From Planctomycetota bacterium (GTDB lineage: Bacteria > Planctomycetota > GCA-002687715), in the NCBI GenBank assembly GCA_009691765.1, contig SIAO01000004.1, forward strand, positions 85,419-149,418: DNA of 64,000 nt, written 5' to 3'. The position numbers and the translations under genes are program-made. The notes below the pieces were generated by a model. It saw nothing but the letters and a program-made list of their open reading frames with translations, searched no databases and was not told the DNA's origin. This document shows, piece by piece, positions 25,407 through 49,053 of the stretch (within the stretch, counting starts at the first letter, position 1; each line of letters opens with the position of its first letter).

Positions 25407-26455
25407 TAGCGCAGGCGTCTTAGACGCGGGTCGCTCTTGGGTGTGGGCGGTGGTGCCGAACCGATGCCAGTCTGCGCCATGATGTCTTCCACGAGTGCCT
25501 GCGGACTCGCGTAACGCACCTCGCGCTCCAAGGCCATCATCTTCTGAATGAAATAATGCATGCGCTGCGAGATACCGAGAGCCTTCAATTCCGGCGAGCG
25601 CAGTTCGTCCAACAAGCGCCGTGCCATGCCTTCATCGTCCGTGGGGCCTTCAAAAGGCAGGCGCCCCACCACGAGGTGATAAAGACTCGCTCCGAGCGCA
25701 TAAATGTCAGCGCGCGGGTCGAGGCCAGAACCCGTCGCCTGCTCCGGCGCAATGTAGGCACGTGTTCCAGCAGTGGTCTCACCCGCCGCGTGATCGAGCT
25801 TCACTGCGAGCCCAAGATCGCAGAGCTTCACTCGCCCTTGCGGATCCAACAGGATGTTCGCCGGCTTCACATCGCGATGCAGGAAGCCGTGTTCGTGCAT
25901 ATGAGTGAGCGCGCGCGCCACCTGCACAATGACCGCGAGCGCTTTCTCTTCGGTGAAGCGGCCGCGGCGGTCCAGTTCTTCTTGCGCGGAACAACCCGGA
26001 AAGCACTCCATCACGAAATAAATCAAGCCTTCATGCTCGTGCAGATACCAACCTTTCACGAGGTTGGGATGCTCGAGGCGACAGAGCAGCTCTCCTTCTG
26101 CACGGAACTCCGCTGCGGAACGAGGATCTCGAGCCAGGCGCGGATGCAGGATCTTGACGGCCACATCGCAGCGAGCCTCAATGTCGCGCGCCCGAATGAC
26201 ACGACCCATTCCTCCGCGAGCCAATTGAGGCCCCAAAAGTAGCCCGGGAAGCAACTTCTCCGGCGGGTGCTCGCCCTGCAACAAGGCTGCTTCACCTGCC
26301 GTGATCCAATGTTTACGCAAACAAATGTCCGCCACGCCGAGCACATGACCGCGCTGTTGTAATTCGGCCTGCTTCGCCAAAACCGCGCGCGCCGTAGCTT
26401 CATCGAGCAACCCTTCCATCACGAGCCGCGCTGCGAGTTTGCCACCACCATCCAT
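25406..26455 (-). CDS. serine/threonine protein kinase
   Basis: G-loop LARGGMGRV, VAVKIL, HRDVKPANILL, DLGLA and APE motifs. No TM segment. Confidence 0.85.
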   Translation of the reverse strand: MDGGGKLAARLVMEGLLDEATARAVLAKQAELQQRGHVLGVADICLRKHWITAGEAALLQGEHPPEKLLPGLLLGPQLARGGMGRVIRARDIEARCDVAVKILHPRLARDPRSAAEFRAEGELLCRLEHPNLVKGWYLHEHEGLIYFVMECFPGCSAQEELDRRGRFTEEKALAVIVQVARALTHMHEHGFLHRDVKPANILLDPQGRVKLCDLGLAVKLDHAAGETTAGTRAYIAPEQATGSGLDPRADIYALGASLYHLVVGRLPFEGPTDDEGMARRLLDELRSPELKALGISQRMHYFIQKMMALEREVRYASPQALVEDIMAQTGIGSAPPPTPKSDPRLRRLR

Positions 26456-26560: not shown

Positions 26561-26647
26561 AAACAGAACCAGAAGCGAGGTTCGCGCAAGGGACGGCGCG
26601 GGCCCGAGTTTGGTTGGTTGGTCATAGTCAAGCGAGGAATCGACACA

Positions 26648-27988
26648 ATGGCGATCGGTGACGTCAATCTCGTGCTGAAATATTGCGAGGCACTCGATGA
26701 GTTCCTGCGCATCCGCGTGTGTTCAGAAACTGAAGCCAAGGCACTACTTGCCAATGGTTGCAGTGGAGACCGCGCCGCTTACCAGTTACACGTCATGCAG
26801 CACACGCTGCTGGATTTCAATCCTGGGCTCAGTGCACGATTGGAAAGCGTGAAACTTCAGGGCACTGTGGCGGACATTGATGAGGTTCTCTACCTCCTGA
26901 GTGTGGACGTCAATCCCGGCCTCGATATCCATCAGGTCTCTATCCCGCTCATGCTCGCGGATGTCTGCAAAGATGAGGAACTTGACGCGCTGTCACAGCC
27001 GGCGCCCAAGTCGAAGAAGCAGCTCGAACGCGTCATGGTCATGGACCGCGAGCTCAAGAAGCGCATTGTGGGCCAAGACTCGGCGGTCGAGATCGTGAGC
27101 CGCGCCATGAAGAAGGCCGCCGTCGGCCTGCGCGATCCGCGCCGCCCCATCGGCGCCTTCCTCTGCGTCGGCCATGTTGGCGTGGGCAAAACCGAATTGG
27201 CCAAGTCGCTCACCGAATACCTCTACGGCACGCAAACCAAACTGATCCGCGTGGATTGCTCGGAGTACGCACTGCCGCACGAATACGCGAAGCTCATCGG
27301 TTCTCCCCCGGGCTACATCGGGCACAACGAAGGCGGCTATCTCACGGAAGCGGCCAAGGAGATGGACGAGTTCGTAGTGCTCTTCGATGAAATCGAGAAA
27401 GCGCACAGCAAGATGCACAACATCCTGCTGCAACTTCTTGACGAAGGCATGGTCACGGATTCCAAGGGCTTCAAAGTTTCCTTCCGCAATGCGTTGGTGC
27501 TGATGACCAGCAACATCGGTGTGCGCGAAGTGGAGGACGCACGCGGCGCCATCGGCTTCGATTCTGATGCACGCGAGAACACGAGCTACGAACGTCACCG
27601 CAGCGCCATCGATGAGGCACTCAAGAAATGCTTCCGACCAGAGTTCTTGAACCGCCTCGACGAAGTGATCGTGTTCAACACTCTGACGCGTGATGACAGC
27701 GTGCGCATCGTGGACATCATGCTCGGCGAAATGGGTCGTATCGCGAAACGAGCCGGCATCAACTTGCACTTCGACGCCAGCGTGAAACGCACCTTGGCAG
27801 AGAAGGGCTGGCGCAAAGAGTGTGGCGCGCGCGAACTACGCCGCACGCTCAAGCAACAAATCGAAACGCCGCTCACGGACTTGCTGCTCGACGGCACCAT
27901 CCGTGAAGGCATGGATGTGCGCGTGCGTGCACGCGCCGGTGAAATCAGTTTCGAGCCGCAACATCTCGAAACTCCCAGCAACGTCTGA
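26648..27988 (+). CDS. single-module ClpB/Hsp104 D2-type AAA+ ATPase with novel N-terminal domain
   Basis: RIVGQDSAV, P-loop GHVGVGKTELAK, Walker B VVLFDEIEKAH, and the ClpB C-terminal PEFLNRLDEVIVF small domain. The first ~130 aa are unrecognised. ATG at 26648 is preceded by GAGGAA; the track ORF begins at TTG 26618. Confidence 0.7.
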   Translation: MAIGDVNLVLKYCEALDEFLRIRVCSETEAKALLANGCSGDRAAYQLHVMQHTLLDFNPGLSARLESVKLQGTVADIDEVLYLLSVDVNPGLDIHQVSIPLMLADVCKDEELDALSQPAPKSKKQLERVMVMDRELKKRIVGQDSAVEIVSRAMKKAAVGLRDPRRPIGAFLCVGHVGVGKTELAKSLTEYLYGTQTKLIRVDCSEYALPHEYAKLIGSPPGYIGHNEGGYLTEAAKEMDEFVVLFDEIEKAHSKMHNILLQLLDEGMVTDSKGFKVSFRNALVLMTSNIGVREVEDARGAIGFDSDARENTSYERHRSAIDEALKKCFRPEFLNRLDEVIVFNTLTRDDSVRIVDIMLGEMGRIAKRAGINLHFDASVKRTLAEKGWRKECGARELRRTLKQQIETPLTDLLLDGTIREGMDVRVRARAGEISFEPQHLETPSNV

Positions 27989-29302: not shown

Positions 29303-29830
29303 TCAGGGGAACAGGAAAGTTGGTGCGGTCATGCTGGCCGTAGCCACAGCATCATCTTTGATGAGGATCGCACCGTACCGAGTTTGATCGCCATGAGCGG
29401 CGCTCACAAGGAAGCGTTCACCGCCATCGCGTGCTTCGCGCTTCAAGAAGACGATACTGGCGTAGCCTTCAGCCACGAGCCAGCGACGTGCGATGTCTTC
29501 AGCCTCGGGTGGTGTTGCTGCGCCGCGCTCGACCGCATAACGCAGGTCCTTGCGCACTTCTTTCAACTCGCCGCGCAACGTCTCAACAGCCGCCAGCGCA
29601 TCGCGTTGAGCAACGCGCACCTCTGCGAGCAGGCGCTGCACCTCGCCGTCAGGTGTCGAAGGCACGACCACCGGTGGCCGCGCCACCAAGTCATTCAAGC
29701 GCCGCTCCACACCCTCGATGCGTTCCGCTGTGTTCATGCGCACGCGCTTCATGGCCTCGATCTGCCGCCAAAGCAGAGCTACGCCCACGACCAGCGCGAC
29801 GAACAAAACGATGTCCATGACAGGCGGCAT
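29303..29830 (-). CDS. membrane-anchored hypothetical protein
   Basis: N-terminal TM helix followed by a coiled-coil/charged region. Forms a 3-gene minus-strand run with asnS. Confidence 0.45.
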   Translation of the reverse strand: MPPVMDIVLFVALVVGVALLWRQIEAMKRVRMNTAERIEGVERRLNDLVARPPVVVPSTPDGEVQRLLAEVRVAQRDALAAVETLRGELKEVRKDLRYAVERGAATPPEAEDIARRWLVAEGYASIVFLKREARDGGERFLVSAAHGDQTRYGAILIKDDAVATASMTAPTFLFP

Positions 29831-30031
29831 GGCGCCAGCGTAGCAAGCTCAGGTTCCGCATGCCCTGAGGGGGTGGAGCATTCCGTCCGCCGGGGCAAAA
29901 GTGAGCGCGAGTAGAGCATGGTCCTGTGGGGGTGGATCATTTCGTTCGAGGCCGCCGAGCCGAAATGCGGAACCCCTTCAGGACATACGCAACCCACGTG
30001 AACTAGCATGTTCGCGCCGTATGCTGCCGAC

Positions 30032-31411
30032 ATGCGCATCCTGAACTTGCTCGCCCTCGGTCTCTTCACTAGCTTGTTGTGCGCGCAACCGGGCATGGAG
30101 CTGTATAGGCAGCAGTGTTCGGCGTGCCACGGCGAGCGCGGGAGAGGTGACGGACCCGCAGCGCGCTTCCTCGACCCGAAACCCCGCGACTTTCGCAGCG
30201 GCTATTTCCGCTTCATTTCTGCCAGCAACTCGGTGCCAACCGATGGTGATCTTTGGGAAGCCATCTCAGCCGGGCTGCCGGGCTCGGCGATGCTCTCTTT
30301 CGCACACCTTCCTCCGGAGCAGCGCACCATGCTCGTGGACATCGTTCGCGGATTCCGCCGTGACGGGCTGCGCGAGCGCTTCGCAACCGCGATCCAAGAC
30401 CCTGCTGCCCTTGAAGCTGCTGTGCTTGAAGCCGACACGCCAGGGCCGCTCGTAGACATGCCGGCGGAAACGCCGAACACCGTCGATGCACGCGCCAACG
30501 GTGCGCTGCTCTTCACACGGCTCTGTTCCGCATGTCATGGCGCTGATGGACGCGGCGTCTACGACCCCGCGCGGCTCACGGCAGAAGGTGATGTCGCGCA
30601 GCCTCGCGACCTCACTCGCGGCGTGCTCAAGGGCGGCGTTGAAGATGTGCGGCTATGGCAGCGCATTCGTGCGGGCATTCCCGGAACGCCCATGCCAGCA
30701 GTGCCGCAGCGCGAACTCTCCGATGCTGACACATGGGACTTGGTCCACTATGTCCAGGCTCTCATTCCGCGTGGCCAACAAGAGCTCCACGACCCGATGC
30801 CATGGACCATCGCAGTGCCGCGCCACAAGGGAACGCTGCCGACCAGCGCCGACGATCCGGCCTTCGCAGCGCTCAAACCCACGTGGGTCGCGTTGGCGCC
30901 GTTTCAGAGCCACACTCGCACCGTCGAAGGCGTGTCGGTGCGCGCGCTCCACGATGGCGAACACATCGCGCTGCGTCTCGAGTATGCCGACCGCACCTAC
31001 GATGTCGCTGGCGCCAAAGCGGTTGCACCCGATGGCGTAGCCGTACGCGTCACGAGCACCGCTGTGCCGCCGGTTTTGCCTATTCCAGGTAGCCCTTTGC
31101 CTGTAGACCGCGCGCTGTGGTTGGCGAGCGCCAAGCCCGCAGCGGACGACCCTGTGTTCGACAAGCTCACGCCGCGTTTCGAAAACCCTGACGGTGTGTG
31201 CCGCTCGCCCATCGGCCCCGAGCATGTCGGCCGCGCACAATGGCGCGATGGTGTTTGGACCGTGCTGATGGTGTTGCGACCGGAGCGCGCAGGGCACATT
31301 GCAGAAACCGTGAACATGCCCGTGAGCTTCGCGATCTTTGATGGCAGCGTTGCGCGCGGCCCACTGCCAGCAGCGTTTTCGCATTGGCAACGCTTGCACT
31401 TCGAGCGCTGA
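30032..31411 (+). CDS. diheme class I c-type cytochrome with C-terminal uncharacterised domain
   Basis: Signal peptide and two CSACHG (CxxCH) heme-binding motifs about 140 aa apart, plus a C-terminal domain of ~200 aa with no recognisable family. Confidence 0.7.
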   Translation: MRILNLLALGLFTSLLCAQPGMELYRQQCSACHGERGRGDGPAARFLDPKPRDFRSGYFRFISASNSVPTDGDLWEAISAGLPGSAMLSFAHLPPEQRTMLVDIVRGFRRDGLRERFATAIQDPAALEAAVLEADTPGPLVDMPAETPNTVDARANGALLFTRLCSACHGADGRGVYDPARLTAEGDVAQPRDLTRGVLKGGVEDVRLWQRIRAGIPGTPMPAVPQRELSDADTWDLVHYVQALIPRGQQELHDPMPWTIAVPRHKGTLPTSADDPAFAALKPTWVALAPFQSHTRTVEGVSVRALHDGEHIALRLEYADRTYDVAGAKAVAPDGVAVRVTSTAVPPVLPIPGSPLPVDRALWLASAKPAADDPVFDKLTPRFENPDGVCRSPIGPEHVGRAQWRDGVWTVLMVLRPERAGHIAETVNMPVSFAIFDGSVARGPLPAAFSHWQRLHFER

Positions 31412-47745: not shown

Positions 47746-49053
47746 ATGGCATACTTCGTACTCCTCTGGGTGCTCTGTCTCTTTCTCTCCGGAATCTGCA
47801 AGCAGCAGGATGGCTTCGAGCCCCTCTTTGATGGCAAGAGCCTCGACGGCTGGGTCAATGTTCAGTGCGCACCTTCCACTTGGACCGTGAAAGACGGCAT
47901 GGTCGTCTGCTCTGGCCTGCCCACTGGGATCCTGCGCACGGCTCGCATGTACGAGAACTTCGAGCTGGAGCTGGATTACCGCCACTTGAAAGCTGGCGGC
48001 AACGCTGGGCTGTTTCTGTGGTCAGATGCGCTCACGGCCCGTGGCCAGCCGTTCAGTCGCTCTATCGAAGTGCAGGTGATGGACGGCGTGGAAAACCCTG
48101 GGTTCTACACCTCGCATGGCGACATCTTCTCGATCCACGGTGCGCACATGGTGCCTGACCGCAAGCACCCCCACGGCTGGGCACGCTGCTTGCCCAGCGA
48201 ACAACGCACCAAACCTTCCCCTGAGTGGAATCACTATCGCGTGATCGTCAACAACGGCACCATCAAGCTACATGTGAACGGTGCTGAAGTCAGTGGCGCC
48301 AGCGCTTGCACGCCGCGCAAGGGCTACATCTGCTTGGAGTCTGAAGGCAGCGAGTGCCACTTCAAGAACCTGCGCATTCGCGAGCTGCCCGACGCGGTGC
48401 CAGCTCTCGAAGCCTCCATGATTGCTACCGCAGACGAGGGCTTCCGCAGTCTCTACGACGGCGCATCACTGACAGGCTGGCGCGAGGCAGCCGACAAAAC
48501 CGGCCACTGGAAATCCAACGATTGGCAATTGGTTTACGACGGCCAAGGCAGCGACTTGTGGAGCACCGAAGAGTTTGGCGACTTTGAAATGTTGGTGGAT
48601 TGGCGCCTGCCCGCGAAGCCAAAGGAAATGCAACGGCCCGTGCTCGCCGCGGATGGCGGCACGGCGAAAGATGCTGATGGCAAGGAGCGCACCGTGACGG
48701 TGCAAGACGCTGGTGACTCTGGCATCTATTTGCGCGGCAGCACCAAAGCGCAAGTGAACATTTGGTGTTGGCCTTGCGGCTCGGGCGAGACTTGGGGTTA
48801 CCGCACAGACCCCGCCACCGACGCAGGCACGCGCGCAAGTTTTGCCCCGCGTGAACGCGCCGACGCACCACTCGGCGAATGGAATCGCTTCCGCATCCGC
48901 CTGAAGGGCGAGAAACTGGATGTGGACCTCAACGGCAAACGCGTGCTGGAAGGCGCCGTTCTGAAGGGCCTCCCCGCACGCGGTCCGCTGGGCTTACAAA
49001 ACCACGGCGACGCCATCGAATTCGCCAACATCTACATTCGCCCGCTGAACTGA
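47746..49053 (+). CDS. secreted tandem DUF1080 (3-keto-disaccharide hydrolase-like) protein
   Basis: Signal peptide and two copies of the FDGKSLDGW...FELELDYR...GNAGLFLW type LamG-like domain. Confidence 0.75.
   Translation: MAYFVLLWVLCLFLSGICKQQDGFEPLFDGKSLDGWVNVQCAPSTWTVKDGMVVCSGLPTGILRTARMYENFELELDYRHLKAGGNAGLFLWSDALTARGQPFSRSIEVQVMDGVENPGFYTSHGDIFSIHGAHMVPDRKHPHGWARCLPSEQRTKPSPEWNHYRVIVNNGTIKLHVNGAEVSGASACTPRKGYICLESEGSECHFKNLRIRELPDAVPALEASMIATADEGFRSLYDGASLTGWREAADKTGHWKSNDWQLVYDGQGSDLWSTEEFGDFEMLVDWRLPAKPKEMQRPVLAADGGTAKDADGKERTVTVQDAGDSGIYLRGSTKAQVNIWCWPCGSGETWGYRTDPATDAGTRASFAPRERADAPLGEWNRFRIRLKGEKLDVDLNGKRVLEGAVLKGLPARGPLGLQNHGDAIEFANIYIRPLN

Follow-up and report, generated by a model that had tools for sequence, protein, structure and literature searches.

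The intergenic region at positions 29831-30031 (201 nt) of the 64,000-nt stretch of planctomycete DNA analysed here, referred to as the window, separates a membrane protein/asnS operon on the minus strand from a cytochrome c gene on the plus strand, and carries repeated sequences between the two divergent genes. It raises the question of whether these repeats are control sites of the genes on either side or DNA of a different kind. A first-pass annotation had considered them tandem operator sites, likely to control cytochrome c expression, or a miniature structured element; the gene context that it gave, repeats between divergently transcribed genes, was borne out by our ORF and Pfam checks. 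We compared the region with orthologous loci, analysed the repeats and their predicted folds, and searched for further copies and for genes that could have mobilised them. The features are collected in Table 1.

Table 1 Features of the divergent intergenic region and its flanking genes, in window coordinates
Feature	Position	Strand	Basis and remarks
175-aa membrane protein gene	29303-29830	-	ORF; first gene of the operon with asnS
-10-like hexamer TACGCT (AGCGTA on +)	29839-29844	-	Minus-strand operon; TACGCT-N6-ATG; putative promoter element
Lineage-specific inserted block, ~135-136 nt	29847-29982	.	Ortholog comparison; boundaries uncertain by ~10 nt
Left arm of 10-bp inverted repeat, GGTTCCGCAT	29852-29861	+	Exact 10/10
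Direct repeat copy 1, CCTGAGGGGGTGGAGCATTCCGTCCG	29864-29889	+	Repeat search; folds as stem-loop H1
Direct repeat copy 2, CCTGTGGGGGTGGATCATTTCGTTCG	29923-29948	+	Repeat search; 5' arm of stem-loop H2
Inner hairpin of H2 (CATTTCG...CGAAATG)	29938-29972	.	RNA folds; also the 35-nt Logan break segment
Third, inverted partial repeat copy	29961-29984	-	3' arm of H2; includes the right arm of the inverted repeat
Right arm of 10-bp inverted repeat, ATGCGGAACC	29965-29974	+	Exact 10/10
-10-like hexamer TATGCT	30020-30025	+	Cytochrome c gene; TATGCT-N6-ATG; putative promoter element
Dihaem cytochrome c gene	30032-31411	+	Pfam: two cytochrome c domains and an EB_dh-like C-terminal domain

One Planctomycetota MAG encodes a protein with 100% identity to the cytochrome c protein, and the next homologs reach 72%, 65% and 64%. 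We compared four syntenic ortholog lineages (64-72% amino-acid identity), namely L002, L003/L004/L005, L006 and L014, where L002 and L006 are short contigs that show part of the gene order only and L014 is the one further close ortholog from a protein-guided metagenome scan, the other 79 loci being distant family members. The ortholog gene order is AAA+ ATPase, asnS, small membrane protein, cytochrome c and GDSL-like hydrolase. The AAA+ ATPase gene of the window (26618-27988, plus strand) encodes a ClpB-D2-like protein with a weak Sigma54_activat match, and its synteny with asnS, the small membrane protein and cytochrome c is kept in all orthologs examined (L003, L094 and L096).

Alignment of these loci bears on both flanking gene starts. 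For the membrane protein, a Pfam search returned no match. A -10-like box precedes its start codon at 29830 (MPPVMD...) by 6 nt, and the N-terminus MP[PS]VM[DE] is kept with synonymous changes in L002, L003 and L006; the gene probably starts here rather than at 29818, the second ATG that gene callers pick. The annotated cytochrome c ORF begins at an ATG at 30008 (467 aa). Its true start is likely 30032 (459 aa), which we favour because it fits the conserved -10 box and the ortholog alignment and gives a signal-peptide-like N-terminus, MRILNLLALG. The EB_dh-like domain refers to ethylbenzene dehydrogenase, and distant cytochrome c homologs (among P0031-P0120) are labelled 'DMSO reductase family type II enzyme heme b subunit'; at this locus the cytochrome c gene stands alone beside asnS, with no catalytic subunit nearby.

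With these starts, both genes have a -10-like hexamer in the same position. The minus-strand gene reads TACGCT-GGCGCC-ATG in the window, and hexamer and spacing are identical in L002, L003, L006 and L014. The cytochrome c gene reads TATGCT-GCCGAC-ATG, and its orthologs carry TATGGT or TAAACT at equal spacing. For leaderless mRNAs, one expects a -10 hexamer that ends 6 nt ahead of the start codon. Judged by this geometry, both flanking core promoters probably make leaderless mRNAs; the link of leaderless mRNA to a Pribnow box placed shortly before the start codon is discussed in the literature (PMC5397173). A scan of the region for sigma-70 promoters and terminators returned no promoter-like and no convincing terminator-like site.

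The distance between the two -10 hexamers sets the window apart from its relatives. It amounts to 175 nt in the window versus 39-40 nt in the four lineages, where the DNA from start codon to start codon is only ~57-75 nt long and the repeats are absent. The flanks are shared by the window and all four lineages, with GGCATGkC..AGCGTAnCA on the left and TAtGnTGCnnnCATG on the right. Therefore, the window holds ~135-136 nt of extra DNA, and all repeats lie inside it. The more distant syntenic loci L094 and L096 (53-54% identity) have intergenic regions of 131 and 221 nt, respectively, whose sequence is unrelated to the block. When the block was aligned locally with seven intergenic regions from orthologs, nothing rose above chance: the best local match, 16/17 between L094 2469-2485 (within its 131-nt intergenic region, in reverse orientation) and the inner hairpin at window positions 29946-29961, TCGAGGCCGCCGAGCC, was equalled by 6/200 shuffles and is not significant after multiple testing. 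The repeats are thus lineage-specific, being absent from L002, L003-5, L006, L014, L094 and L096, and the proposal of tandem operator sites that control the cytochrome c gene is not supported, because they are missing from every orthologous promoter examined, an absence that the first-pass annotation had itself named as refuting.

Within the block, the two direct repeats are identical at 22/26 positions over 26 nt each, with a start-to-start spacing of 59. When the 201-nt intergenic region was shuffled 300 times with dinucleotides preserved, the best 26-mer pair reached at most 20/26, and the repeats described by the first-pass annotation are real by this measure, beyond all 300 shuffles, with their spacing of 59 confirmed. 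A degenerate consensus of the repeat matches these two sites only in the 64-kb window, with 0 matches expected. When the two 59-nt periods are compared along their length, 22/26 positions agree within the 26-nt core versus 9/33 outside it, which is about the level of unrelated sequence. A simple recent 59-bp tandem duplication was rejected, as the similarity is confined to the 26-nt core and Tandem Repeats Finder reported no tandem repeat.

The 10-bp inverted repeat of the same annotation holds as an exact 10/10 match; its right arm, placed there at ~29957, lies 8 nt away at 29965. Exact inverted repeats of at least 10 nt occur in 6/300 shuffles, so that the 10-bp pair alone is marginally above chance (p ~0.02). 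The right arm is part of a third, inverted copy of the repeat, which is complementary at 18/24 positions to 29921-29944, the second repeat, with 16 nt between the two arms. Neither this third copy nor the confinement of similarity to the core is mentioned in the first-pass annotation. The pentamer TCAGG occurs at 29849-29853 and 29978-29982 in asymmetric position, overlapping the left arm by 2 nt and lying 3 nt from the right arm, and no clean target-site duplication was found flanking the 10-bp inverted repeat. The sole ORF of the block has 27 codons (29918-30001, plus strand, MVLWGWIISFEAAEPKCGTPSGHTQPT) and runs from the second repeat almost up to the cytochrome c promoter; neither a -10 box nor a Shine-Dalgarno sequence precedes it, and it is probably not expressed. 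The block itself contains no TAnnnT (-10-like) hexamer on either strand.

RNA folding of the plus strand predicts two stem-loops, H1 and H2. H1 (29861-29897) is repeat 1 folded on itself, with a folding energy of -23.1 kcal/mol (z = -3.0). H2 (29921-29984) forms where repeat 2 pairs with the inverted third copy around the inner hairpin, and the H2 region 29917-29990 folds at -35 kcal/mol (z = -3.4). For the whole region, z = -3.35 on the plus strand versus z = -2.0 on the minus strand, which folds less well because several of the pairs are G.U on the plus strand. Folded as DNA, neither strand is distinct from shuffles. The repeats differ at four positions, each neutral for the small hairpin GGGTGGA/TCCGTCC: two are C-to-T changes that keep a G.U pair, one falls in the loop and one in a bulge. 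Repeat 2 alone does not adopt the hairpin of repeat 1 in its minimum-energy fold (z = +0.46). As a description, the term miniature structured element is borne out by the two predicted stem-loops. The accompanying idea that the cores form G-rich structures is not: the canonical G-quadruplex motif (G3+N1-7)x4, four runs of three or more G separated by loops of 1-7 nt, is absent on both strands, and this reading was rejected. The region holds one relaxed two-tetrad G-quadruplex candidate only, in repeat 2. Rfam gave no relevant match for the whole window at the gathering threshold or for the region at E <= 10, where the single match was a spurious lncRNA model at 12.4 bits. ARAGORN returned two unrelated tRNAs only.

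We searched for further copies of the repeat in the source genome and in public data. Blastn-short, pattern search and whole-window repeat scans detected no second copy within the 64 kb of the window, and the 4.5 kb past its left edge contained none either. Together, these cover ~68.5 kb of the source genome; if that genome measures several Mb, we calculate that a repeat family with fewer than ~50 members would in most cases show no second copy in such an interval. A pattern scan of GTDB (185,579 species, one genome each) gave 5 matches, about the number expected by chance and evidently none from the source species; the matches stop at ~20 nt, and their sources (Cypionkella, Paracoccaceae, Methanolinea, Desulfoluna) include no Planctomycetota. 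The repeat-core pattern had 0 matches each in JGI metagenomes and IMG/VR, and like all our public pattern scans these searches demanded an exact match to a degenerate 21-26-nt pattern. Plasmids and phages gave no blastn match. The first-pass annotation had named occurrence of its 28-mer at many unrelated positions as the sign of a generic repeat, and there is no other copy in any data searched. The block is therefore neither a conserved operator, as it is absent in orthologs, nor a demonstrable generic repeat. Among the ~45 ORFs of the window, which have housekeeping functions only, none encodes a transposase, an integrase, a RAYT, a Y1-transposase domain, an IS200/IS605 tnpA or tnpB product, or a Cas protein.

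Logan assemblies of two sequencing runs provide a further view of the block, as their contigs break inside it. Left-side contigs (L012 and L013; SRR8561390 and SRR8561391, assembled independently) end at 29967, and the right-side contig L001 (SRR8561391) starts at 29943; a similar right-side contig may be the one of SRR8561390. Logan contigs are built with k = 31, place each 31-mer in one contig only and are not reported at <=150 bp (PMC12424806). The contigs overlap by 25 nt and not by 30, which implies an unreported 35-nt node at 29938-29972 with branches at both ends. In the reads of both runs, the 35-mer 29938-29972 therefore has two or more sequence contexts. These could stem from a further copy, from a strain variant, or from sequencing errors that recur at a GC-rich hairpin.

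We tentatively favour the explanation that the block is a low-copy palindromic insert of the REP/REPIN or MITE kind, or the relic of one. A block of ~135 bp would have been added in the source lineage between two conserved, back-to-back core promoters. It would comprise a hairpin-prone unit of ~24-26 nt in three copies, one of which would form its own stem-loop while the other two, as an inverted pair 16 nt apart, would form a longer one, and the 10-bp inverted repeat would lie near both block ends. Such a small, non-autonomous palindromic element, or its decayed relic, would be present in low copy and would have landed in a tolerated gap between promoters. The block is probably non-coding and not transcribed from a promoter of its own. 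Since it lies upstream of both core promoters and has no TAnnnT hexamer, it is probably part of neither mRNA and not an independent gene.

The consequence of a palindromic insert at this position would be architectural. Start sites in the relatives are ~65 nt apart, so that the upstream region of each promoter overlaps the other promoter's; in the window the start sites are ~200 nt apart. The -10 boxes would have moved from 39-40 bp to 175 bp apart, so that promoters overlapping in relatives would be separated here, and the asnS operon would have entirely new DNA upstream of its -10 box. The shared ortholog flanks, the repeat architecture, the z-scores of the stem-loops, the confinement of similarity to the 26-nt core, the lack of a TAnnnT hexamer and of an Rfam match in the block, the recurrence of the TAnnnT-N5-7-ATG geometry at other gene starts and the Logan breaks at the 35-nt node argue for an insert. 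Against it stand the lack of a second copy, the p ~0.02 of the inverted repeat, the lack of a clean target-site duplication and of any transposase, RAYT or integrase gene in the window, and the resemblance of the block ends to the nearby start of the cytochrome c gene, a hint that the block arose locally. The data show the repeats, the extra DNA compared with orthologs, the predicted folds and the lack of further copies in the sequences searched; we infer the mobility of the element, the identity of the two promoters and any effect on expression.

Comparison with known families of palindromic repeats shows what the block shares with each. Like REP/REPIN (BIME-like) sequences, it consists of an extragenic, imperfect-hairpin unit of ~24-35 nt, with repeat 1 as a self-contained stem-loop; the copies are clustered within ~130 bp in mixed orientation, and the inverted doublet 29921-29944/29961-29984 forms a long hairpin. 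In a REP family, by definition, tens to hundreds of copies occur in one genome together with a linked gene for the RAYT transposase that mobilises them. The block, in contrast, is a single cluster in 68.5 kb with no RAYT in the window and no assignable 5' GTAG-type head. With MITEs it shares a length of ~135 nt (<~600 bp), its non-coding nature, inverted repeats near the ends and restriction to one lineage; it differs in having no other copies in 68.5 kb, no clean target-site duplication and no parent IS with matching ends, and in a terminal inverted repeat that is marginally above chance. PATEs are palindrome-associated transposable elements that derive from IS200/IS605 and lack terminal inverted repeats (Dyall-Smith et al. 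2011, PMC3119063), and in the PATE HqIRS46 two near-terminal palindromes form an exact 22-bp direct repeat (PMC3119063). The block resembles them in being too short for a protein, in its directly oriented, palindrome-bearing repeats near the ends and in showing no clean target duplication. Unlike PATEs, it has a 10-bp terminal inverted repeat, its repeat 2 lacks the hairpin of repeat 1 in predicted folds, and no IS200/IS605 tnpA or tnpB is present in the window. Membership in the REP/REPIN, MITE or PATE groups is not established, because multiple copies were not found in the data reached.

An origin of the block from its own surroundings is a doubtful yet serious alternative to a mobile insert. 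In a divergent promoter of quasi-palindromic sequence, template switching or inverted and direct duplication of promoter-proximal DNA, followed by divergence, would leave neutral filler and involve no mobility. The block is single-copy in all data searched, as expected here, and segment 29838-29862 (left flank with the ancestral -10 box, and left arm) nearly repeats, in inverted orientation, the first cytochrome c codons at 30031-30054, over 21-24 nt with 18/21 identities; 2/500 shuffles score as well. The right-arm region 29943-29974 likewise resembles the cytochrome c promoter and start at 30010-30041 in direct orientation, a match equalled by 19/500 shuffles. However, part of the first match extends into the ancestral -10 box that is already present in orthologs, so that some of it is coincidence. 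Duplication would moreover require selective decay to leave similarity in the 26-nt core only, and the block has no significant similarity to any ortholog intergenic region. Preservation of the core at 85%, with a spacer at about the level of unrelated sequence, would also suit newly acquired control sites, a weaker version of the operator proposal in which the 26-nt cores act as putative regulator sites or extra weak promoters, and the position between divergent promoters fits such a role, as do the minus-strand nAnnnT hexamers AATGCT and AATGAT at 29882 and 29941, which point to the asnS operon. These hexamers have A at position 2 and T at position 6 but lack T at position 1. Two core copies between divergently transcribed genes are also what tandem operator or activator sites look like; the block differs from these in that its repeats are not conserved in orthologs and not helically phased, the 59-bp spacing corresponding to ~5.6 turns, and in that its cores are hairpin-prone instead of forming a simple dyad or half-site array. 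With the repeats absent from all orthologous promoters, no other site in 68.5 kb and no cognate DNA-binding regulator gene adjacent, we consider control sites unlikely.

Readings that assign a function to the RNA of the block are harder to reconcile with its position. That the two stem-loops act as an sRNA or a 5'-leader element expressed from the plus strand accords with the better folding of this strand (z = -3.35 vs -2.0) and with repeat differences that are neutral for the small hairpin. The block, however, is upstream of both conserved leaderless promoters and hence outside both mRNAs, and the RNA reading is weakened because it probably belongs to neither mRNA and to no gene of its own. 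It has no Rfam family at E <= 10, no TAnnnT box and no terminator-like hairpin with a T run, repeat 2 lacks the hairpin of repeat 1 in the minimum-energy fold, and no relative conserves the block, all of which makes a structured RNA improbable. The 59-nt period and the repeat length of ~26-31 nt fall within the CRISPR range and could describe a degenerate mini-array with a repeat of ~28 nt and a spacer of ~31 nt. We rejected this candidate as extremely improbable: there are two copies only, 85% identical, accompanied by an inverted third copy and a terminal inverted repeat, and no cas genes among the ~45 ORFs of the window. A more far-reaching proposal would make the block a recently evolved promoter insulator or regulatory module, in which hairpin units recruited from a mobile element or from a local duplication of the cytochrome c start uncouple the overlapping leaderless promoters and subject either cytochrome c or the asnS operon to a new regulator or to control that depends on DNA structure; we regard this, too, as quite improbable.

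If the palindromic insert is real, the locus is a case of ordinary small palindromic repeat DNA that colonises an intergenic gap in a poorly studied, uncultured planctomycete. Most likely, the block is an ordinary kind of element in an unusual and instructive position. It constitutes a natural experiment, in which a 135-bp insert splits compact, overlapping and apparently leaderless divergent promoters that are intact in relatives, and expression with versus without the block would reveal how far the promoter pair depends on shared upstream DNA. The locus also cautions that lineage-specific repeats in promoters should not be read as operators without an ortholog check.

The promoter geometry of the two flanking genes recurs elsewhere in the window. 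TAnnnT-N5-7-ATG is found at further probable starts on both strands, at 26455, 34821 and 43972 (minus) and at 47746 and 22778 (plus), none of which has a Shine-Dalgarno sequence. By our estimate, ~1 such case would be expected by chance among ~55 starts. This pattern in the sequence suggests that leaderless mRNAs are common in the source planctomycete.
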